A DNA stretch of 49,611 bases from Actinomycetota bacterium (lineage in GTDB: Bacteria; Actinomycetota; Acidimicrobiia; Acidimicrobiales; CADCSY01), in contig JAHWJH010000002.1 in assembly GCA_019348555.1 (NCBI GenBank), positions 1 to 49,611 on the forward strand, read 5' to 3'. The notes under the pieces were generated by a model. That model did not search any database. It was not told the DNA's origin and saw nothing but the letters and a program-made list of their open reading frames with translations. Position numbers and translations under genes: made by a program. Within the stretch, counting starts at the first letter, position 1. Each line of letters starts with the position of its first letter. Below are positions 3,933-49,611 of the stretch, one piece after another.

Positions 3933-5179
3933 TGGCAGACATCGCCATCGAGATCGACGGGGTGTCCAAGCGCTTCCGGCTCTACCAGGAGCAGGTGCAG
4001 TCGCTCAAGGAACGGGTGATCCGCGGCCGTATCCCCCACGAGGACTTTTGGGCCCTGCGCGACGTGAGCTTCGAGGTCAAACAGGGCGAGACCGTCGGCC
4101 TGCTGGGTCACAACGGCTCGGGCAAGTCGACCCTGCTCAAGTGCGTGGCCGGCATCCAGCGCCCGACCAGCGGGCGCATCGTCGTCGGTGGCCGTATGGC
4201 AGCGCTCCTGGAGCTCGGCGCCGGGTTCCACCCCGAGCTCACCGGGCGGGAGAACGTCTACCTCAACGGCTCGATCCTCGGGCTCTCCAAGGCGGAGATC
4301 ACCCGGGTGTTCGACGACATCGTCGCCTTCGCCGAGATCGAGCAGTTCATCGACAACCAGGTGAAGCACTTCTCCTCGGGTATGTACGCCCGCCTCGGCT
4401 TCGCCGTGGCGGTCAACGTCGACCCCGACCTGCTGGTGATCGACGAGGTGCTGTCGGTGGGCGACGAGGCCTTCCAGCGCAAGTGCATCAACCGCATCAA
4501 GCGCTTCCAGACCGAGGGGCGCACCATCTTGTTCGTGACCCACGCCGCCGACCTGGTGCGCCAGATCTGCGACCGGGCCGTGGTGCTCGACCACGGCGAG
4601 ATGGTGATCGACGCCGAGCCCGGCATCGCCGTGCGCGCCTTTCGCGAGACCCTGCTGCACCGCGAGGGGGTCGAGGGCGCCGCCGCCGCCGGCCCCGACG
4701 TGCGCACCGACGACCCCGATCCCGAGCGCCGGGGCACCCTGAAGATCCGCATCACCGGCGTCGACGTCGAGTACCCCGGCGCCGGGCGGGCACATCTGCT
4801 GCCCGGCGAACGACTGGTCGTGCGGGTGCGTTACTCGGCTGCCGAGGCGGTCGACGAGGCGGTGTTCGGCGTGGCCGTGCACGACATCAAGGGCGACCAC
4901 CTCTTCGGCACGAACACCGAGCTGGTGGGGCTCGGGGTGTCGGTGCCCGTGGGCGACGGCGAGGTGGCCTTCGTGTTCGACTCGGTCCCGCTGCTCGACG
5001 GCACCTACTTCCTCACGCTGGGGGCCCACGCCCCGGGCGGCGAGCCGGTCTACGACTGGAGCGAGCAGCGCCACAGCTTCGAGGTGGTCAACCCCGGGCG
5101 CACGCCGGGCCTGGTCGACCTGCGTCCCCGCATCGAGGTGCGGGGCGCCACCGCCACCCCCCTACCTCCCCAGCGCTGA
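3932..5179 (+). CDS. wzt: Polysaccharide export ABC transporter ATP-binding protein with a C-terminal Wzt_C-like carbohydrate-binding extension
   Basis: The GTG at 3932 shares one base with the wzm TAG (TAGTG). Walker A GHNGSGKST, signature FSSGMYARL, Walker B LLVIDE. A beta-rich C-terminal domain of about 170 aa follows (KIRITGVDVEY...VFGVAVHDIKGDHLFGTNT...LLDGTYFLTLG). Confidence 0.85.
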   Translation: MADIAIEIDGVSKRFRLYQEQVQSLKERVIRGRIPHEDFWALRDVSFEVKQGETVGLLGHNGSGKSTLLKCVAGIQRPTSGRIVVGGRMAALLELGAGFHPELTGRENVYLNGSILGLSKAEITRVFDDIVAFAEIEQFIDNQVKHFSSGMYARLGFAVAVNVDPDLLVIDEVLSVGDEAFQRKCINRIKRFQTEGRTILFVTHAADLVRQICDRAVVLDHGEMVIDAEPGIAVRAFRETLLHREGVEGAAAAGPDVRTDDPDPERRGTLKIRITGVDVEYPGAGRAHLLPGERLVVRVRYSAAEAVDEAVFGVAVHDIKGDHLFGTNTELVGLGVSVPVGDGEVAFVFDSVPLLDGTYFLTLGAHAPGGEPVYDWSEQRHSFEVVNPGRTPGLVDLRPRIEVRGATATPLPPQR

Positions 5180-5215
5180 GCCAGCCGCCCCGCCGTCCGG
5201 TCGGACCCGGAGGGC

Positions 5216-5884
5216 TCAGGGCCGGCGTCCGTTCCAGGCCACCAGGCGGTCGATGGCCGGGGCGTCGTCGCCCACGTCGACCGCTTCGGCGAAGGGCGCC
5301 TTGGCGTGGCGTAGCGCCTGGGGCAACGACGCCCGCATGGCCTCGAAGGCAGCGCTGCGCCCACCGGCCGGCATGCCCTGGCGAATGGCGGCGAAGGCGA
5401 CCTCGAGCACCTGAGCGTCCCAGTCGGGACGCTGCCCGGTGGCGGTGGCCACGTCCCAGGTGTGGACGGTGATCTCGTTGGTGTAGAGGGCCAGAGCCGC
5501 AGCGCCGGGCAGCTCGGTCCAGGGCAGGCGGACCATGCGGGCGAGGACGGCGTCGTCGCTCCAGGCGGCCTGGACCTGATGGGCGGCGTCGAGCCAGGCC
5601 GCCGACCAGGCGTCGCCGGCGACGTCATCGGCGATCTGCGGCACGCTCAGCGCGTCGCCGCCGCTTCCGACGACGGCCACGCGGCGCAGCACGCCGACCA
5701 GGTGCCCGAGAAGTTGGCGGACGTCGTAGTCGTCGCACGGCGTCGGTCGGTCGAGCTGCTCGGGCGCCACGGCGGCGATCACCGACCCGGCGGTGGATAC
5801 CGCTCGGGCGAAGATCGCTCGGGGATCGTCGTCACCGACGGTCGTGTCGTGGGGGGCGGGCATGGCGGTGGCGTTGGTGGTCAT
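5216..5884 (-). CDS. DinB/mycothiol-maleylpyruvate-isomerase-N-like protein (TIGR03086-type)
   Basis: Last 222 codons of track ORF 5216..6385, starting at the ATG at 5884 (MTTNATAMPAP). PCDDYDVRQLLGHLV and NEITVHTWD are typical of the actinobacterial DinB-fold family. Confidence 0.6.
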   Translation of the reverse strand: MTTNATAMPAPHDTTVGDDDPRAIFARAVSTAGSVIAAVAPEQLDRPTPCDDYDVRQLLGHLVGVLRRVAVVGSGGDALSVPQIADDVAGDAWSAAWLDAAHQVQAAWSDDAVLARMVRLPWTELPGAAALALYTNEITVHTWDVATATGQRPDWDAQVLEVAFAAIRQGMPAGGRSAAFEAMRASLPQALRHAKAPFAEAVDVGDDAPAIDRLVAWNGRRP

Positions 5885-34080: not shown

Positions 34081-34178
34081 GTAACGAAGTCGGTTCTCGT
34101 GCGTTTCATGGAGTGGAGGTGTCAGCGCCCGCCACACGGGGAGGGTAGGTCATGCAGCCCGAGCGAGGAGCAGGATGA
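34081..34178 (+). promoter_or_regulatory. Conserved intergenic element, copy A: ECF-type promoter motif, leader, strong Shine-Dalgarno sequence and 8-codon uORF
   Basis: GTAAC (34081-85), 16 nt, CGTTT (34102-06). The reverse strand reads TGAAAC, 16 nt, CGTTAC. A 22-nt block (34096-34117) is identical to 42832-42853. GGGGAGGG lies 6 nt before the ATG at 34152 (MQPERGAG, stop at 34176-78). Confidence 0.55.
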
Positions 34179-38831: not shown

Positions 38832-38897
38832 GCCGGTGCACGGCGAAGGTGCCAGACGATGAGCGACACGGTGAAGGAACGACGCCGTGCAGCCGGC
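38832..38897 (+). other. Long-stem hairpin between the TM-helix gene and ppm1
   Basis: GCCGGTGCACGGCG (38832-45) pairs with CGCCGTGCAGCCGGC (38883-97): 14 bp with one bulged G and a 37-nt loop. It may be a terminator or attenuator; this is not proven. Confidence 0.3.
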
Positions 38898-38926
38898 GCG
38901 ACCGCGGCACCGTCGCATGCGGTGCG

Positions 38927-39781
38927 GTGAGACGCACCCTGGTCGTCCTGCCGACCTACCTCGAGGCCGACAACCTGGAGGAGGTCCTCCGGCGACTGCG
39001 GGCGGCGGTACCGGCTGCCGACGTGTTGGTGATCGACGACTCGAGCCCCGACGGCACCGCCCAGGTGGCGAAGGCGGTGGGCGAAGAGCTCGGCCGGGTG
39101 GAAGTGTGGGTCAGGCCGGGGAAGGCGGGGCTCGGGAGCGCCTACCGGGACGGCTTCCGGCAGGGCCTGACCCGGGGCTACGAGGTGTTGGTGGAGATGG
39201 ACAGCGACCTCTCGCACGACCCGGCGGCACTGCCGGCACTGATCGCCGCCATCGACCAGGGGGCGGCACTGGTGATCGGCTCCCGGTACGTCCCCGGAGG
39301 GCGCATCCCGAACTGGTCGCTCTACCGGCGGTTGCTGTCTCGCTTCGGGAACCGCTACGCCGCCCGACTGTTGCGCCTCGACGTGGCCGACGCCACCTCG
39401 GGCTTTCGCGCCTACGACGGCGCCACCCTCGGCCGGCTCGACCTCAGCGCCGTCCGGGCGGACGGCTACGGCTTCCAGATCGAGATGGCCCATCGGATCT
39501 CCCGCCTCGGCGGTGGGGTGGTCGAGCTGCCCATCGACTTCGTCGAGCGCCATCGTGGGACCTCCAAGATGTCGTTGCCGATCGTGATCGAGGCGTTCGT
39601 GCTGGTCACCCGCCGTGGGCTGGGCCAGCGGCTGCAGAGCGTCGTGCGGGCGATCAGTCGCACGACTCCACGAGCTGCCTTCGGCCGCCGGGTGACGCCG
39701 GTAGGTGCAGATCGCGTACAGTGCAGCGGTACCGGAAACGTCCCTCTACACCTTTCAGGAAAGGACGCACCTCTACGATGA
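38927..39781 (+). CDS. ppm1: Polyprenol-monophosphomannose synthase (GT2, Ppm1/DPM1-like)
   Basis: GTG at 38927 (VRRTLVVLPTYLEADN); the track ORF starts at 38849. VIDDSSPDGT, EMDSDLSHDP, GSRYVPGG, TSGFRAY. The last 25 codons or so run through DNA homologous to the non-coding leader of the second lipoprotein copy. Confidence 0.85.
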   Translation: MRRTLVVLPTYLEADNLEEVLRRLRAAVPAADVLVIDDSSPDGTAQVAKAVGEELGRVEVWVRPGKAGLGSAYRDGFRQGLTRGYEVLVEMDSDLSHDPAALPALIAAIDQGAALVIGSRYVPGGRIPNWSLYRRLLSRFGNRYAARLLRLDVADATSGFRAYDGATLGRLDLSAVRADGYGFQIEMAHRISRLGGGVVELPIDFVERHRGTSKMSLPIVIEAFVLVTRRGLGQRLQSVVRAISRTTPRAAFGRRVTPVGADRVQCSGTGNVPLHLSGKDAPLR

Positions 39782-40035
39782 ACTCCCTTTGGAAGAAGGC
39801 CGCCGTAGGACTGATCGTCACCGGATTCTCGCTCGGAGCCACTGCCTGCGACGGTGACGGGGAAGGCACGGTGGAGGTGACCGAGACCGAGTTGGAGACC
39901 GAGCTCGAGATCGAGACCGAGACCGAGACCCAGACCCTCGAGCCGACCGAGACCGAGACCGAGACCGAGACCGAAGAGGTCGCCACCGAGACCGGCACCA
40001 TCACCGAGACAGAAACCGAGTTCCAGCCTCGGTAG
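39778..40035 (+). CDS. 85-aa lipoprotein with a highly acidic Thr/Glu-repeat mature region (copy 1)
   Basis: The ATG at 39778 overlaps the ppm1 stop (ATGA). The signal peptide and lipobox are MNSLWKKAAVGLIVTGFSLGATAC. The mature 61 aa contain 21 Glu, 2 Asp, 19 Thr and one basic residue (hand count): ...TETELETELEIETETETQTLEPTETETETETEE... Confidence 0.75.
   Translation: MNSLWKKAAVGLIVTGFSLGATACDGDGEGTVEVTETELETELEIETETETQTLEPTETETETETEEVATETGTITETETEFQPR
39946..39969 (+). repeat. In-frame hexanucleotide tandem repeat (ACCGAG)x4 inside lipoprotein gene copy 1
   Basis: Four perfect ACCGAG units, followed by the degenerate unit ACCGAA. They encode TETETETE. Further degenerate GAGACC units span about 39880-40020. 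Confidence 0.9.
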
Positions 40036-40169
40036 ATCGGTCCGCCGGCGCGGCGACCAGCCCCTCCTCCACTGCGGCCGTCCCCGGCGGGTCCACCACG
40101 GGTGCGCCGGACGGGGCTGAAGGCGGGCCCGCCCGGCGCTCGCATCGGAATGGCGGGTCCCGCCTCGGG

Positions 40170-41492
40170 TTGCTCGTGCCCGTGGCCCTCATCGTCATCG
40201 CCGCCTGTCTGCGCTTCGTCAACCTCGCCGAGCCACCCCGCCTCTACTTCGACGAGGTCTTCTACGCCAACGACGCCCGGTCCATGCTGGAGACCGGGGT
40301 GGAGGTGGATCGCCCGGCTCATCCCCCCGTCGGGAAGTGGCTCATCGCCGTCGGCATCGCCGTCATCGGCTTCGAGCCCCTGGGCTGGCGGTTGGCGAGC
40401 GCCACCGCCGGCACGCTGACGGTCCTCGTCACCTACTTCGCCGCATGGCGGTTGTTCCGCTGCCGGTGGCCGGCGGCGCTGGCGGCGCTGCTCGTCGCAT
40501 TCGACGGACTGGCGCTGACCATGAGCAGGATCGCCATGCTCGACGTCTTCGTGGGGCTGTTCATCGTCACCGGCTTCTGGCTCGTCGCCGTGGCGCTCGA
40601 CGACCGGCGATCGCCAGGTCGCTGTCTGGCCCTCGCCGGCATTGCCTTCGGGCTGGGCGTCGCCACCAAGTGGTCGGCGGTCTTCGCCCTGGTCACGGCC
40701 CTCGCCGTGGTCCTCGTGTCGCAGCTCCGGCAGGCCCGACGTAACCGCGCCGGAGGGCGTGCGATGGCCCGCGGCGTGGGTGTGGCGGCACTGTGCCTGG
40801 GGGTGCTGCCCATCGCCGTCTATGTGCTCGGCTACACGGGTTGGTTCGCCAACTACCACCACTCCGACGCCGGCCGTGACCGGTGCCCGGAGGGAGGCTG
40901 TGACGTCGGGATGACCGAGCGGGCACGGGTGTGGTGGGAGGAGCAGCTCGAGCTGGTGGACTACCACCAGCGCTTGCCGACGACGCATCCCTACCGCTCC
41001 TCGGCCACCACCTGGCCGCTGATGACCCGCCCGGTCCTGTACTACTTCGAGCGCTGCACGAACGAGCAGGTCCAAGCCGGTGAGCCCTGTGCCGTCGGCG
41101 TGGGCAACCGAGCCAAGATCCTGGGCCTCGGCAACCCCGTGGTGTGGTGGACCGGCCTCCTCGCCTACCCGGTGGTCGCCTGGTCGGCGCTCGTCCGCCG
41201 CCGCCGCTCCGCGCTCGCCCTCCTGGTGTTCCTCCTCGGCCAGTACGTGCCGTGGCTGCTGGTCGGCAAGGACGGCTACTTCTTCTATGCCACGCCTCTC
41301 GTCCCTTTCGTGGCCATGAGCGTCGCCCATCTCTGCATCCGGGCGGACGCGTCGAGGCGACTGCGGTGGTTGCCGGGCGGAGTCGCCGGGCTGGCTCTGG
41401 TGGCGCTCGTGTACTTCCTGCCAATCTGGTCAGGCGTCGAGCTGCCCCGGTCGGTGCTCGAAGCGCGCATGTGGCTGGACTCTTGGCGCTGA
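40170..41492 (+). CDS. pmt: Protein O-mannosyltransferase (GT39, actinobacterial Pmt)
   Basis: 440 aa. YFDEVFYANDA (DE motif in loop 1), HPPVGKWLIAVG, GWRLASA, ATKWSA and HPYRSSATTWPLM. The start is uncertain (TTG at 40170, GTG at 40176 or 40182). Confidence 0.85.
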   Translation: MLVPVALIVIAACLRFVNLAEPPRLYFDEVFYANDARSMLETGVEVDRPAHPPVGKWLIAVGIAVIGFEPLGWRLASATAGTLTVLVTYFAAWRLFRCRWPAALAALLVAFDGLALTMSRIAMLDVFVGLFIVTGFWLVAVALDDRRSPGRCLALAGIAFGLGVATKWSAVFALVTALAVVLVSQLRQARRNRAGGRAMARGVGVAALCLGVLPIAVYVLGYTGWFANYHHSDAGRDRCPEGGCDVGMTERARVWWEEQLELVDYHQRLPTTHPYRSSATTWPLMTRPVLYYFERCTNEQVQAGEPCAVGVGNRAKILGLGNPVVWWTGLLAYPVVAWSALVRRRRSALALLVFLLGQYVPWLLVGKDGYFFYATPLVPFVAMSVAHLCIRADASRRLRWLPGGVAGLALVALVYFLPIWSGVELPRSVLEARMWLDSWR

Positions 41493-42790
41493 GGCGCCGA
41501 GGTGGTCGCCGGCGGCCCGATCCCAGGCCCTCGAAGTGAGGCGACGATGATCCAGACCAGGGCGGCGGCGCGGAGGGCGACGGCCACCCCGAGCAGCCCA
41601 TAGTCGAGCGGTGGCTCCTCCCCGGCTCGCCCCCCCAGGTAGGCGAACTCGGCGGCGAACACGGCCAGGTCGGCGACGACGAAGACGGCGAACGGGGCTA
41701 CCCGGGGAAGGAGGAGGGCGAGCAGGGGGATCAGCCACAGGTCGTACTGCGGCGAGAACACCTTGTTGGTCACGAGGAACCAGGCGAGCAGCGGCAGCAG
41801 CAGCGTCCAGGTCGTCGCCGGGCGGCGCCGTCTGAGGCCGATGGCGAGCACGACCAGGGCGCCGGCGGCGAATGCCAGGGCGCTGGCGCGGTTGAGCGCC
41901 TGGCGGTCGAGGGCCACGCCACCGAGCTGGTCAGCCACCGCCCAGAGCGTGGACCAGCTGGCGCCCCGCTCGCGATTCACCTCGAAGAAGCGGCTCCACC
42001 CTTCCGGAGCGACGAAGGCCAGGGGGACGTTCACCGCCGCCCAGGCCACAGCGGCGCCGGCGATGTGGTGGCCGGCGGCGCGCCAGTTCCGCTGGCGCAG
42101 GCGCGCAGCCACGACCAGCGGGACGAGCAGGACGGGAAACAGCTTGGCGGCGGCGCCGAGCCCCGCCGCCACGCCGGCCGCCCCATCCCGCCCGTCCACG
42201 TGCAGAGCGACGGCGAGCACGGTGAGCAGCACCGGGAGCGGGTCCCAGTTCAAGGAGGCGTAGAGGACCAGAGGTGGCGCCCCCGCCCACCACAACTGCC
42301 TGCTGGTGGGCAGCTTCAACCGCCGCAGGATGAACAGGGTGGCCACCACGAACGCTGCGTTGAGCCCTGCATTGAGGTTGTAGAAGACCAGAACGCCGCC
42401 GCCCCAGGCCCTGGTGACCAGCGCCGTGGACCACATCTGCAGACCGATCAGGGGTGGGTACTCGAGCGGCTGATCGATGTAGGGGATGCGCCCGTCGGCG
42501 AGACCTCGGCCCGACCACAAGGCGACCAGGTCGCTGTAGCAATACTGGCGGAACTGCTCCCCGCCTTCCCAGCCCCCGTCGAAGATGCAGTGGCCCTTCG
42601 ACCACCAGCCGAGCACGAGGGCAACCCCGACGACTGCCAACGGGGCCCCACCGACGCGGCGATCGCGCTGTTCGGAACCATCCGACCTGGCCGCCTCCGA
42701 CGTTCCGCGCTTCAGCGACAGGCTCGGACGCGGCACAGTCCGGCGAGGATAGCGAGGGCGCCTTCGCCGCCTGAGGGGCTCCTCCCTCAC
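41285..42790 (-). CDS. GT87/DUF2029-family polytopic membrane glycosyltransferase (second, divergent paralogue)
   Basis: 501 aa. CYSDLVALWSGRGLADGRIPYIDQPLEYPPLIG and AAKLFPVLLV are typical of GT87. The C-terminal 70 aa or so are antisense to pmt and look non-native. The GTG start at 42790 is uncertain. Confidence 0.7.
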   Translation of the reverse strand: MREEPLRRRRRPRYPRRTVPRPSLSLKRGTSEAARSDGSEQRDRRVGGAPLAVVGVALVLGWWSKGHCIFDGGWEGGEQFRQYCYSDLVALWSGRGLADGRIPYIDQPLEYPPLIGLQMWSTALVTRAWGGGVLVFYNLNAGLNAAFVVATLFILRRLKLPTSRQLWWAGAPPLVLYASLNWDPLPVLLTVLAVALHVDGRDGAAGVAAGLGAAAKLFPVLLVPLVVAARLRQRNWRAAGHHIAGAAVAWAAVNVPLAFVAPEGWSRFFEVNRERGASWSTLWAVADQLGGVALDRQALNRASALAFAAGALVVLAIGLRRRRPATTWTLLLPLLAWFLVTNKVFSPQYDLWLIPLLALLLPRVAPFAVFVVADLAVFAAEFAYLGGRAGEEPPLDYGLLGVAVALRAAALVWIIVASLRGPGIGPPATTSAPQRQESSHMRASSTDRGSSTPDQIGRKYTSATRASPATPPGNHRSRLDASARMQRWATLMATKGTRGVA

Positions 42791-42816
42791 CGCATCGGCC
42801 AGGGAAGGTCGGCCGC

Positions 42817-42948
42817 GTAACCGATCCGCACCTCGTGCGTTTCATGGAGTGGAAGGGTGTCAACGCCCACCACGGGGGAGGGTGTGCCATGCCGCCTGAG
42901 CGGGTGTCGGGAGTGAGCGGTACGAGAACCTCTCGCCGTACTTCTTGA
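42817..42948 (+). promoter_or_regulatory. Conserved intergenic element, copy B: ECF-type promoter motif, leader, strong Shine-Dalgarno sequence and 19-codon uORF
   Basis: GTAAC (42817-21), 16 nt, CGTTT (42838-42). The reverse strand reads TGAAAC, 16 nt, GGTTAC. GGGGGAGGG lies 6 nt before the ATG at 42889 (MPPERVSGVSGTRTSRRTS, stop at 42946-48, 12 nt before the lipoprotein ATG). Confidence 0.55.
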
Positions 42949-42960
42949 AAGGACTCGATC

Positions 42961-43218
42961 ATGAACTCGTTCTGGAACAAGGCCGCCGTGGGCGTGCTCG
43001 CCGCCGGCCTCTCGCTGGGGGCCACCGCCTGCGACGGGGACGGCGAAGGCACGGTCGAGGTGACCGAGACCGAACTGGACACCGAGCTCGAGATCGAGAC
43101 CGAGACCGCCACGGAGACCGTGGAGCCGACCGAGACCGAGACCGAGACGGTGACCGAAGAGGTCGCCACCGAGACCGGCACCATCACCGAGACGGAGACG
43201 GAGTTCCAGCCCCGGTAG
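42961..43218 (+). CDS. 85-aa Thr/Glu-repeat lipoprotein (copy 2)
   Basis: MNSFWNKAAVGVLAAGLSLGATAC followed by DGDGEGTVEVTETELDTELEIETETATETVEPTETETETVTEEVATETGTITETETEFQPR. By manual alignment, 73 of 85 residues are identical to copy 1. Confidence 0.8.
   Translation: MNSFWNKAAVGVLAAGLSLGATACDGDGEGTVEVTETELDTELEIETETATETVEPTETETETVTEEVATETGTITETETEFQPR
43129..43146 (+). repeat. In-frame (ACCGAG)x3 tandem repeat inside lipoprotein gene copy 2
   Basis: Three perfect units. The unit that is perfect in copy 1 reads ACGGTG here. Confidence 0.9.
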
Positions 43219-43265
43219 TCGGGCGGTTCTGACGCCGGTTGGGCGCTGCTCGCTAGCGTCGTGGC

Positions 43266-43700
43266 GTGGAGCGCCTGGTGATCGCCGCCGTCCTGGTGGC
43301 CCTCGCCGTGGTGGTGGCGGTGGTGCTCGACCGGCGCCGGCCCGACGCCCCGACCCAGGCCCGCTGGGCCGTGCCCACGCAGCTCGACCGGGGCGACTTC
43401 GCCCGCCCGGAGGCGCCTTGGCTGGTGGCGGTGTTCACCTCGGCGACCTGTGACTCCTGTGCCGGCGTGGTGGCGAAGGCCGTCCCGCTCGACGGTGGCG
43501 AGGTCGTCGTCCAGGAGGTGGAGATCGGCGCCGACCCGGCCCTGCACCGCCGCTACGGCATCGACGCCGTGCCGTGCCTGGTGGTGGCCGACGCCGAGGG
43601 CGTGGTGCGGGCCAGCTTCGTGGGGCCGCCCACGGCGACCGACCTGTGGGCGACGCTCGCCGACCTCCGGCGGGACGACGCGGCCAGAGCCGGCGACTAG
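43266..43700 (+). CDS. Membrane-anchored thioredoxin-fold protein (CxxC)
   Basis: 144 aa, GTG start. N-terminal helix LVIAAVLVALAVVVAVVL. WLVAVFTSATCDSCAG is the CxxC motif in a Trx-like context, and IDAVPCLVV is the cis-Pro loop region. Confidence 0.65.
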   Translation: MERLVIAAVLVALAVVVAVVLDRRRPDAPTQARWAVPTQLDRGDFARPEAPWLVAVFTSATCDSCAGVVAKAVPLDGGEVVVQEVEIGADPALHRRYGIDAVPCLVVADAEGVVRASFVGPPTATDLWATLADLRRDDAARAGD

Positions 43701-43716
43701 GAGCGCGCAGGAGCCT

Positions 43717-45675
43717 CTAGGAGCGGGCGGGACGAAGCTCGGCGGGCGCGGCGGAGGCCACCGAACCGGCACCGTCGGAACCGGCCCCGTTGGCGGCAGC
43801 CCGTTGCGCCTCGTCGATCAGGCGGGTCACCTCCGCGCCGTCGATCGTCTCGTGCTCGAGGAGGGCGGCGGCCACGGCGTCGAGGCCTGGCCGGTAGTGG
43901 CGCAGCGTGTCGCGGCAACGGTCTTCCTGCTCACGCAGGATGCGCTCGACCTCCTCGTCGATCACCCTGGCGGTCTCGTCGGAGTACTCCCTGCTGTGCA
44001 TGAGGTCCTCCCCGAGGAAGACCTGGCCCTGGCCACCCCAGGCCATGGGCCCGATCCGTTCGCTCATGCCCCACTCGCGCACCATCTTGCGGCTGAGCTC
44101 GGTGGCCCCCATCAGGTCGTTGTTGGCGCCGGTGGAGATGACGCCGAACACCAACTCCTCGGAGATGCGCCCGCCCAGGCGCACGACCAGCGAGTCCTCG
44201 ATGTAGTCCTGGCGGTAGAGGTGGCGCTCCTCGGGCAGCTGCTGGGTCACGCCGAGCGCCATGCCGCTCGGCAGGATGGTCACCTTGTGCAGAGGGTCGG
44301 CGTGGGGGAGCACGGCGGCGCACACGGCGTGGCCGCCCTCGTGGTAGGCGACGATCTCCTTCTCCACGTCGGACAGCGCCATCGACTCCCGGCGCTGGCC
44401 CATGAGCATCCGGTCGCGCGCCGACTCGAAGTCCTCCATGTGGACCTGCTTGGCGTCGCGGCGCACGGCGAACAGAGCCGCCTCGTTCACCAGGTTCGAC
44501 AGATCGGCGCCGCTCATCCCCGGTGTGCCCTTGGCCACGGTCACCAGGTCGACGTCGTCGGCCAGCTTCTTGTCCTTGCTGTGGACGTGGAGGATGGCGA
44601 GGCGCTCCTCGCACTCGGGCAGGGGAACGACCACCTGGCGGTCGAACCGGCCCGGGCGCAACAGGGCGGGGTCGAGGATGTCGGGGCGGTTGGTGGCGGC
44701 CATCATCACGATGCCCTCGGTCGCCTCGAAGCCGTCCATCTCCGACAGCATCTGGTTGAGGGTCTGCTCGCGCTCGTCGTGGCCGCCGCCCAGGCCCGCC
44801 CCGCGCTTTCGCCCGATGGAGTCGATCTCGTCGACGAAGATGATGGCCCTGCCCATCTTGCGGGCCGACTGGAACAGGTCGCGGACCCGGCTGGCGCCCA
44901 CGCCGACGAACATCTCCATGAAGTCCGAGCCGGTGACCGACAGGAACGGCACGCCGGCCTCACCGGCCACCGCCCGGGCGATGAGGGTCTTGCCGGTCCC
45001 CGGCGGGCCCACCAGCAGGACCCCCTTGGGGATGCGTGCGCCGATGGTGGCGAATCGCTCGGGCGACTTGAGGAAATCGACCACCTCGGTGATCTCCTGC
45101 TTGACGCCCTCGTAGCCGGCCACGTCGGCGAAGGTGGTTCCCGGCTTCTCGGTGCTGTAGGTCTTGGCCTTGGACCGCCCGATCTGCATGATGCCGCCCA
45201 TCTGGCCCTGCGTCCGGCGCTGCATGTACACGATGAAGCCGATGAGCAGCGCGACCGGCAGCAGGAACGGGATCAGTGAGGCCAGCAGGTTGGGCGTGGG
45301 GGTGCGGGTCTCGTACTTGATGTCGTTGTTCTCGAAGACCCGCGTGTCCTTGGCGAACAGCTCGGGCGTGGCGCTGCTCTGGAACTGCTCGCCGTCATTG
45401 GTCTCCGCCACGATGACGTTGGTCTGGGTGTTGTAGGTGATCGACGCCACCTCTCCCGCTTCGACGCGATCGCGCAGCTCCGAGTAGCTCACGTGGGTGC
45501 TCTCGGGAGCCGAGAAAAGACCGGTGACGAGGAAGAACGACAGGAGCAGGCCCAGCGCCGCCCACATCGCCCAGCGGGGCCATCCCTGGTCGGGTCGCCC
45601 GCCCTTGGCCCCGAAGCGGCGCGCGTCGCGGGGGTCGCGAGGCGGGTTCGGCGACTGGGGGACCATGGCCCCCAT
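43717..45675 (-). CDS. ftsH: ATP-dependent zinc metalloprotease FtsH
   Basis: ATG at 45675 (MGAMVPQ; alternative at 45666; track ORF start at 45759). Two N-terminal helices, Walker A GPPGTGKT, Walker [12 protein letters not shown] region [19 protein letters not shown], zinc site HEGGHA. Confidence 0.95.
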
Positions 45676-49504: not shown

Positions 49505-49611
49505 TCATTGTAACACGGGGGCGGGGCGGGCGGGGGTGGGGCGGGCGCGACGGGGCGGGGGGGGGGGGGGGGGGGGGGGCGGTGGTGGGGGGGGGGGGGG
49601 GGGGGGGCGGG
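49505..49611. other. Poly-G/low-complexity tract at the contig end, probably a sequencing or assembly artefact
   Basis: Normal coding sequence stops abruptly at ...ctgcgtctcattgtaacac and is followed by G-runs (two runs of more than 20 G) to the last base. Confidence 0.8.

Follow-up and report, generated by a model that had tools for sequence, protein, structure and literature searches.

A fixed-length Thr/Glu lipoprotein co-inherited with pmt in Actinomycetota, probably a dedicated target or partner of the protein O-mannosyltransferase

The described systems closest to the one reported here are the Pmt-dependent lipoglycoproteins of Actinobacteria, such as LpqH and SodC of Mycobacterium tuberculosis and PstS and CseA of Streptomyces coelicolor, which are exported lipobox proteins with Thr clusters near the lipidated Cys, made in genomes that encode both the glycosyltransferase (GT) family 39 protein O-mannosyltransferase Pmt and a polyprenol-phosphate sugar synthase. 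These are globular proteins glycosylated on a short tether and encoded apart from pmt; to our knowledge, pmt is genetically unlinked to its targets throughout the model species, and we know of no acceptor rule or dedicated substrate for Pmt in Actinobacteria. In S. coelicolor, lipoproteins form one of the main substrate classes of Pmt (PMC6593405). The alternating (Pro-Thr)n linkers of glycoside hydrolases from Cellulomonas fimi and Cellulomonas flavigena are Pmt targets that bear tens of mannoses (up to 32-65), and O-mannose is elongated by GT87 enzymes; the function of protein O-mannosylation in Actinobacteria is still called ‘enigmatic’ in a 2025 review (PMC12757957). Mycobacterial Pmt has further been reported to form a complex with GT87-like, beta-propeller and DivIVA-like proteins, in a preprint that also reports a general dependence of GT-C enzymes on protein partners, some of which are lipoproteins (10.64898/2026.07.15.738315). 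Here, we describe a locus in a 49,611-nt stretch (the window) of contig JAHWJH010000002.1 from an actinomycetotan of the order Acidimicrobiales, in which a small gene for a Thr/Glu-rich lipoprotein (the TE-lipoprotein, copy A; 39778..40035) is preceded by a GT2 gene and followed by pmt, a convergent GT87 gene, a second copy of the lipoprotein gene (copy B) and a gene for a thioredoxin-like protein.

The TE-lipoprotein shares with the known lipoglycoproteins the lipobox, the Thr clusters near the putatively lipidated Cys and the genomic company of a GT39 Pmt and a synthase-like GT2. It differs from them in that its entire mature chain is the Thr-rich segment, in being rich in Glu rather than Pro/Ala and in being co-inherited with pmt, and it is as yet only a candidate glycoprotein. 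With the Cellulomonas linkers it has in common an alternating X-Thr pattern that uses Thr with almost no Ser. However, X is Pro in those linkers, which are extended disordered segments within large enzymes, whereas in the TE-lipoprotein X is Glu or an aliphatic residue, and the protein is stand-alone, apparently lipid-anchored and predicted to form a beta-hairpin. The pairing of a GT39 Pmt with a GT87-family protein, and the presence of small or accessory proteins around a GT-C enzyme, recall the mycobacterial complex. In mycobacteria, the genes for that complex are dispersed and have no TE-lipoprotein partner, while in the window pmt and the GT87 gene are adjacent and the lipoprotein is an additional conserved component.

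The central observation is that the TE-lipoprotein gene and pmt are inherited together. Profile searches, both word-indexed and exhaustive, supplemented by inspection of the flanks of homologues of the protein O-mannosyltransferase (PMT), recovered a family of 15 members: the two window copies, two tandem copies in L090, and one each in L001, L002, L003, L009, L010, L011, L015, L091, L092, L093 and P0031. Two of these come from cultured organisms, Blastococcus xanthinilyticus (L092) and Modestobacter roseus (L093). Excluding P0031, which has no locus, 14 genes have a readable neighbourhood, and 12 of them immediately precede pmt on its strand, at a distance of 3-177 nt (in the window, both L090 copies, L001, L002, L003, L010, L011, L015, L091, L092 and L093). 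In Blastococcus, Modestobacter and L003 only 3-4 nt separate the two genes, and in the other loci 20-177 nt. The gene on the far upstream side differs by locus, coding for a GT2 enzyme (oriented either way), an AAA ATPase or a sulfotransferase. Downstream of pmt, the convergent gene is GT87 in seven loci (the window, L001, L010, L011, L090, L091 and L092) and YfhO, another GT-C enzyme, in two (L002 and L095). A maximum-likelihood tree of 82 PMTs groups all 11 of the linked ones within a single clade of 13 (Shimodaira-Hasegawa-like approximate likelihood-ratio support 98). Mapped on this tree, the linkage takes just two changes (a single gain, plus a loss in L012/L013), whereas shuffles take 10.5 and none of 500 came out as low. 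A scan of 96 sources with the hidden Markov model (HMM) of the family turned up none of its members in the roughly 75 PMT loci that are more distant. L095 carries what looks like a frameshifted remnant in the same position upstream of pmt: ahead of its pmt/YfhO pair, at 2307-2836, a lipoprotein signal (ending in SLALGASAC) and a TE-rich tail lie in different frames and have been called as two small genes, which points either to a frameshift in a family member or to an error in the sequencing.

The family is small. Its 14 members with available DNA score 76-120 bits against the family HMM, with the next matches at 37 bits or less, and a profile search of 1.84 billion cluster representatives returned only five matches below 1e-9. 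No member matches any Pfam or NCBIfam family, a sequence search of the PDB gave nothing significant, the proteins of the window and of L001 were all absent from an exact-sequence cluster look-up, and a full-text literature search for Thr-Glu or TE repeats yielded noise only; the preliminary description had likewise failed to recognise the family. Weaker profile matches (P0004-P0030 and many of P0032-P0070) proved to be assorted short lipoproteins or acidic N-terminal tethers of larger proteins in unrelated contexts, such as P0004 and P0006 beside MbnB/DUF692-type genes and P0017 beside DJ-1 and GHL10 genes, and were rejected as members. In L005 (4588-5571), three consecutive small open reading frames (ORFs; 4588-4989, 4947-5264 and 5287-5568) match the family profile weakly; among their products are the acidic lipoproteins P0004 and P0006 (from two of the three), and the ORFs adjoin MbnB/DUF692-type and HvfC-like genes. 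We regard these as a different system, alike in composition only.

The sequence features of copy A indicate a genuine small lipoprotein gene. Its translation reads MNSLWKKAAVGLIVTGFSLGATAC followed by DGDGEGTVEVTETELETELEIETETETQTLEPTETETETETEEVATETGTITETETEFQPR, the latter being the predicted 61-residue mature part after Cys24. The N-terminus has its basic residues at 6-7 (KK), an uncharged core of 12 residues and a lipobox, LGATAC, that ends in Cys24. All 15 members share a basic n-region, a hydrophobic core and a single Cys at the equivalent lipobox position. The stricter G+LPP-type regular expression accepts 10 of the 15 as entered, the remaining five departing from it through lipobox variants or through the start as entered (a truncated call or an extra codon). 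We considered Tat-dependent export, given a TRR or STRR motif in some distant members, but both copies in the window carry KK and no twin-Arg, and we assume the Sec route; a Sec-type signal ahead of 19 Thr in 61 residues is what would be expected of an exported protein with exposed acceptor residues. The mature chain contains 21 Glu, 2 Asp, 19 Thr and no Ser, and its sole basic residue is the C-terminal Arg, exactly the counts first reported for it, with a calculated net charge of about -22 at pH 7. It has no internal tryptic site and would therefore be missed by standard proteomics. The x-E alternation remarked on in the preliminary description is present in the translation and exceeds what this composition gives by chance: in 20,000 shuffles, acidic residues at a lag of two were expected 8.2 +/- 1.8 times and are observed 15 times (p = 2.5e-4), while adjacent acidic pairs were expected 8.3 times and occur once (p = 5e-5). 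At the DNA level, Tandem Repeats Finder reports a degenerate period-6 array at 39879-39974 (16 copies, 78% matches), within which four perfect ACCGAG units stand at 39946-39969, as originally noted.

Comparison of the gene copies establishes that the gene is under purifying selection. Copies A and B differ at 33 nucleotides, of which 19 are synonymous and 14 non-synonymous, giving a ratio of non-synonymous to synonymous rates (dN/dS) of 0.16, or of 0.11 when the mature part is taken alone; against the L001 and L009 orthologues the window copies give 0.26-0.51, so that the four DNA copies together span 0.11-0.51. The GC content by codon position (0.59/0.47/0.86-0.96, with 0.86 at the third position of copy A, in a genome of 73% GC) is the usual signature of coding sequence in a high-GC genome. 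Moreover, the DNA similarity between A and B is limited to the ribosome-binding site and the ORF, beginning at GAAAGGA and ending exactly at the stop codon; the GGAAAGGA portion of the ribosome-binding site of copy A recurs in L001 and L090. Two long minus-strand ORFs (39654..41330 and 41931..43772) were dismissed as high-GC artefacts that mirror the repeat as SVSVSV. The matches in two metatranscriptome runs (X16 and X17) are confined to the simple (GAGACC)n repeat core and come from other organisms.

The second defining property of the family is its fixed length. A core alignment of nine members has no gaps at identities down to 44%, and the core has the same length, free of insertions and deletions (indels), in all 15. 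Three landmarks, Val32 (in GTVxV), a central Pro56 (xPTETE) and Phe82 (TETETEF), hold a V-24-P-26-F spacing in 13 of the 15 members by counts that were partly manual, and this spacing extends from metagenome-assembled genomes (MAGs) of Acidimicrobiales type to Geodermatophilaceae. Among the close relatives with DNA, the proteins of the window (A and B), L001 and L090 have exactly 85 residues and that of L009 has 86, and related soil-metagenome contigs cross the ORF with no gaps. In-frame differences in repeat number among relatives, the mark of contingency tandem repeats, were thus not seen, and the suggestion that the hexamer array might expand or contract in frame is not supported. In the homologues, composition, periodicity and even the exact register are all retained. 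By column, Thr is conserved at 88% and Glu at 77%, and Ser is nearly absent from the family. P0031 has 10 Lys/Arg, mostly where other members have Glu, so that its net charge is only about -6, and L091 has five; both keep the Thr positions. Hence, what stays constant in the family is a ladder of Thr and not charge alone. The C-terminal residue varies among R, G, N, D and E.

AlphaFold2, run with 6-row and 9-row alignments, produced the same model twice, in agreement with the initial view that the alternation indicates beta structure rather than disorder. The model is one long beta-hairpin with arms at residues 31-54 and 58-82 and a turn at E55-P56-T57, with a predicted local distance difference test score (pLDDT) of 87-91 in the middle and a predicted template modelling score of 0.33-0.34; it is a prediction from a shallow, low-complexity alignment. 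Its two equal arms agree with the conserved 24/26 spacing around the Pro. A conserved EE at residues 66-67 shifts the phase of the alternation, and as a consequence Glu is predicted to face Glu and Thr to face Thr near the turn, with Glu mostly opposite Thr or aliphatic residues in the membrane-proximal half. Foldseek found no match in the PDB below E = 0.04, and its top rows, long hairpins of pore-forming or ring-forming assemblies, were set aside as generic, since any long hairpin resembles them.

Taken together, we consider it very likely that this is a real lipoprotein gene functionally coupled to Pmt, and, because the gene is inherited together with pmt, its product is probably Pmt's own dedicated target or partner. 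The more specific proposal, our preferred reading although we regard it as evenly poised, is that the lipoprotein is an operon-encoded acceptor that Pmt heavily mannosylates to give a lipid-anchored acidic glycopeptide of fixed length. The precursor would be exported by Sec, lipidated on Cys24 and cleaved by signal peptidase II, leaving the 61-residue chain tethered at the outer face of the cytoplasmic membrane. As the chain emerges from the translocon, Pmt would mannosylate many of its approximately 19 Thr residues, using polyprenol-phosphate-mannose made by the adjacent GT2, and the convergent GT87 would either extend the mannoses or serve as a partner subunit of Pmt. The product might then be a heavily mannosylated, acidic beta-hairpin or rod about 8 nm long that forms part of a hydrated layer between membrane and wall, with a supply from copy B, behind its putative promoter of the extracytoplasmic function (ECF) sigma type, that could rise under envelope stress. 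We infer each of the lipidation, the mannosylation, the hairpin and the envelope role.

In the light of the published work on Pmt, the locus can be read as holding a donor synthase, an initiating transferase, an elongating or partner GT87 and a minimal Thr-ladder lipoprotein. The adjacent gene product has the PMT, PMT_4TMC and PMT_2 domains, an invariant DE motif (D28-E29) and a match to yeast Pmt1 (6P25) at 2e-7, which, with the synthase-like GT2, suggests a functional Pmt with a lipid-linked mannose donor pathway. The recurrent convergent pmt/GT87 pairs fit the heterodimer of Pmt and a GT87-like protein reported from mycobacteria. Further, the gene copy number has risen independently in two genomes (the window and L090), as expected for an abundant product. 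Among the three functions first envisaged for the alternating chain, a Thr ladder for glycosylation has by far the strongest support, given the co-inheritance with pmt, whereas pure polyanion or metal binding is weakened by the higher conservation of the Thr columns and by the Lys/Arg-rich P0031.

Several points weigh against a dedicated acceptor. Copy B is not directly upstream of pmt, adjoining instead the GT87 and thioredoxin-like genes 1.5 kb away from it, and the family gene of L009 (P0001) is followed, on a 1.1-kb contig, by a ferredoxin gene. Four PMTs have no such gene upstream, two inside the linked clade (L012 and L013) and two next to it (L014 and L094). In L094 (2109-4467), a MAG of Egibacteraceae, pmt lacks any small gene upstream and is divergent from an rsmI-type methyltransferase gene, a different setting for a PMT just outside the linked clade. 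The GT2 is a putative mannose-donor synthase only: its best NCBIfam matches, polyprenyl-phosphate sugar synthases, all fall below cut-off. Known Pmt acceptor regions are rich in Pro, Ala, Ser and Thr rather than Glu. Finally, brush regions usually tolerate indels, and the strict length and register over deep divergence would seem a better fit to a structured interaction surface than to a mucin-like brush.

This last consideration leads to the alternative that survives best, although we still think it unlikely: the lipoprotein would be no substrate itself but an accessory subunit of the Pmt-GT87 complex, or its regulator. Its lipid-anchored acidic hairpin would bind Pmt, GT87 or both from the periplasmic side and, as gatekeeper, scaffold or pseudo-substrate, control the access of acceptors, much as lipoproteins and other partners act on mycobacterial GT-C enzymes. 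The retention of core length and V-24-P-26-F register at only about 44-52% identity, the reproduced hairpin prediction with its central pLDDT of about 87-91, and the conserved order of lipoprotein gene, pmt and convergent GT87 are consistent with such a role, as is the 2026 preprint that reports mycobacterial Pmt to act in one complex with a GT87-like protein and further partners (10.64898/2026.07.15.738315). The gaps of 3-4 nt to pmt in Blastococcus, Modestobacter and L003 also suggest translational coupling and stoichiometric production. However, the family bears no similarity to the reported Pmt partners (GT87-like, beta-propeller and DivIVA-like) or to any Pfam or NCBIfam model, a low-complexity chain of 61 residues with 19 Thr resembles an acceptor, and the duplications in the window and L090 suit a bulk product better than a stoichiometric subunit. 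The replacement of GT87 by YfhO in L002 and L095 likewise indicates that a specific contact with GT87 is not conserved.

Decidedly unlikely, in our estimate, is an unglycosylated polyanionic envelope lipoprotein that acts as a Ca2+/Mg2+ reservoir, charge brush or membrane-wall spacer, with the pmt linkage reflecting shared envelope regulation and no direct biochemical relationship. Its appeal lies in the charge of about -22 over 61 residues, in the Glu-Glu cross-strand pairs of the predicted hairpin, which would need counter-ions, and in the ECF-type promoter before copy B. There is also a weak compositional likeness to the procyclins (EP/GPEET; Trypan_PARP, PF05887) of Trypanosoma brucei, small lipid-anchored proteins with strongly acidic dipeptide repeats that are thought to form an extended polyanionic surface coat. 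These are eukaryotic, anchored by glycosylphosphatidylinositol and built of Glu-Pro repeats; at 15.3 bits against a cut-off of 100 (E = 0.02), homology was rejected. Acidity is moreover not universal in the family, as P0031 and L091 illustrate, and it is the Thr columns that are the better conserved. Co-regulation alone would also leave unexplained why same-strand adjacency, with gaps as short as 3-4 nt, has been retained on the PMT tree. Another fixed-length comparison is Braun's lipoprotein Lpp of Escherichia coli, an envelope ruler with a mature chain of about 58-61 residues. The TE-lipoprotein resembles it in being a lipoprotein of similar, fixed mature length, but Lpp is an alpha-helical trimeric coiled coil linked to peptidoglycan through its C-terminal Lys, whereas the TE family is predicted to be beta-structured and its C-terminal residue varies. 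That the ORF is non-functional, either untranslated sequence thrown up by the GAGACC hexamer repeat or a slippage-prone contingency repeat of free length, is highly improbable and already largely refuted, for although a degenerate hexamer array, four units of it perfect, underlies the ORF and spurious ORFs abound in high-GC genomes, the excess of synonymous changes and low dN/dS between A and B, the codon-position GC, the conserved ribosome-binding site, the paralogue similarity that stops at the stop codon, the gap-free cores of the 15 homologues, from cultured Geodermatophilaceae to Acidimicrobiales-type MAGs, and the gap-free related contigs all speak against it.

The features of the locus are collected in Table 1; copy B and the neighbouring GT2, PMT and GT87 genes go unmentioned in the preliminary description of copy A. 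The GT2 ORF of the window runs through the conserved leader of copy A (39620-39781), and its end overlaps the start codon of that gene in the sequence ATGA. Since the L001 GT2 stops about 98 nt before the lipoprotein gene and the window ORF crosses the conserved leader, the last approximately 50 codons of the latter are probably not genuine coding sequence (an over-called 3' tail) or else reflect a recent stop loss. The TA(C/G)AGT hexamer in the leader may possibly be the -10 element of a promoter belonging to copy A itself. No terminator is predicted between copy A and pmt, and the pmt and GT87 ORFs overlap by 208 nt (41285-41492). The GTAAC-N16-CGT motif occurs exactly twice in the window, before copy B and at 34081-34104, both times inside a shared element of about 95 nt, the second instance of which (34081-34178) adjoins an ECF sigma gene. 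In L090, a 1.54-Mb contig whose PMT is 83% identical to that of the window, the same motif lies in the spacer before the second of two tandem 85-aa genes (4203-4460 and 4723-4980) upstream of pmt, which share 97% of their sequence over 396 nt and whose protein products are identical. The thioredoxin-like gene was not seen beside any other family member with a readable neighbourhood, and any association with the family is tentative. At its far end (49517-49611), the window runs out in about 95 nt of G-rich sequence (period-1 G, 71% matches), probably an artefact of assembly or sequencing where the contig stops.

Table 1. Features of the TE-lipoprotein locus in the window (positions of the whole stretch)
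Feature	Position	Strand	Basis or remark
GT2 glycosyltransferase, polyprenol-phosphate sugar synthase type (Ppm1-like)	38849..39781	+	PF00535 at 1.8e-25
TA(C/G)AGT hexamer in leader	39717..39722	+	leader conserved in window, L001 and L090
Predicted ribosome-binding site, AGGAAAGGA	39757..39765	+	12 nt before ATG; A/B similarity starts here
TE-lipoprotein gene, copy A	39778..40035	+	85 aa plus stop; family profile score 118 bits
Predicted signal peptide of copy A (codons 1-23) and lipobox Cys24 codon	Cys24 at 39847-39849	+	
Thr/Glu core, residues 31-82	39868..40023	+	gapless alignment, V-24-P-26-F spacing, AlphaFold2 models
pmt, GT39 protein O-mannosyltransferase	40170..41492	+	PF02366, PF16192 and PF13231 above cut-off
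GT87-family membrane glycosyltransferase	41285..42790	-	PF09594 at 1.7e-9; convergent with pmt
GTAAC-N16-CGT, ECF-sigma-type promoter motif before copy B	42817..42840	+	
TE-lipoprotein gene, copy B	42961..43218	+	85 aa, 86% aa identity to copy A
Thioredoxin-like protein gene	43266..43700	+	47 nt downstream of copy B; weak thioredoxin matches

The family would have been missed because it matches no family model, is of low complexity and lacks internal tryptic sites; what is new here is its fixed-length architecture, its cultured carriers and the pattern of a single origin on the PMT tree. At its most far-reaching, and in a form that we hold to be rather improbable, the dedicated-acceptor proposal would make the family a protein counterpart of lipoteichoic acid, lipomannan or the procyclin coat: a lipid-anchored, polyanionic beta-hairpin of fixed length (about 8 nm), mannosylated by Pmt and GT87 along its Thr ladder, made in bulk and boosted through an ECF-sigma promoter under envelope stress, that fills the space between membrane and wall, sets its width and is the main reason for the O-mannosylation machinery in this clade of PMTs. 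More immediately, a minimal candidate acceptor or partner of 61 residues, encoded directly before pmt and co-inherited with it across a PMT clade that includes the culturable, non-pathogenic soil bacteria Blastococcus and Modestobacter, offers a genetic and biochemical handle on the specificity of Pmt, on the role of its GT87 partner and on the physical role of mannoproteins in the envelope.

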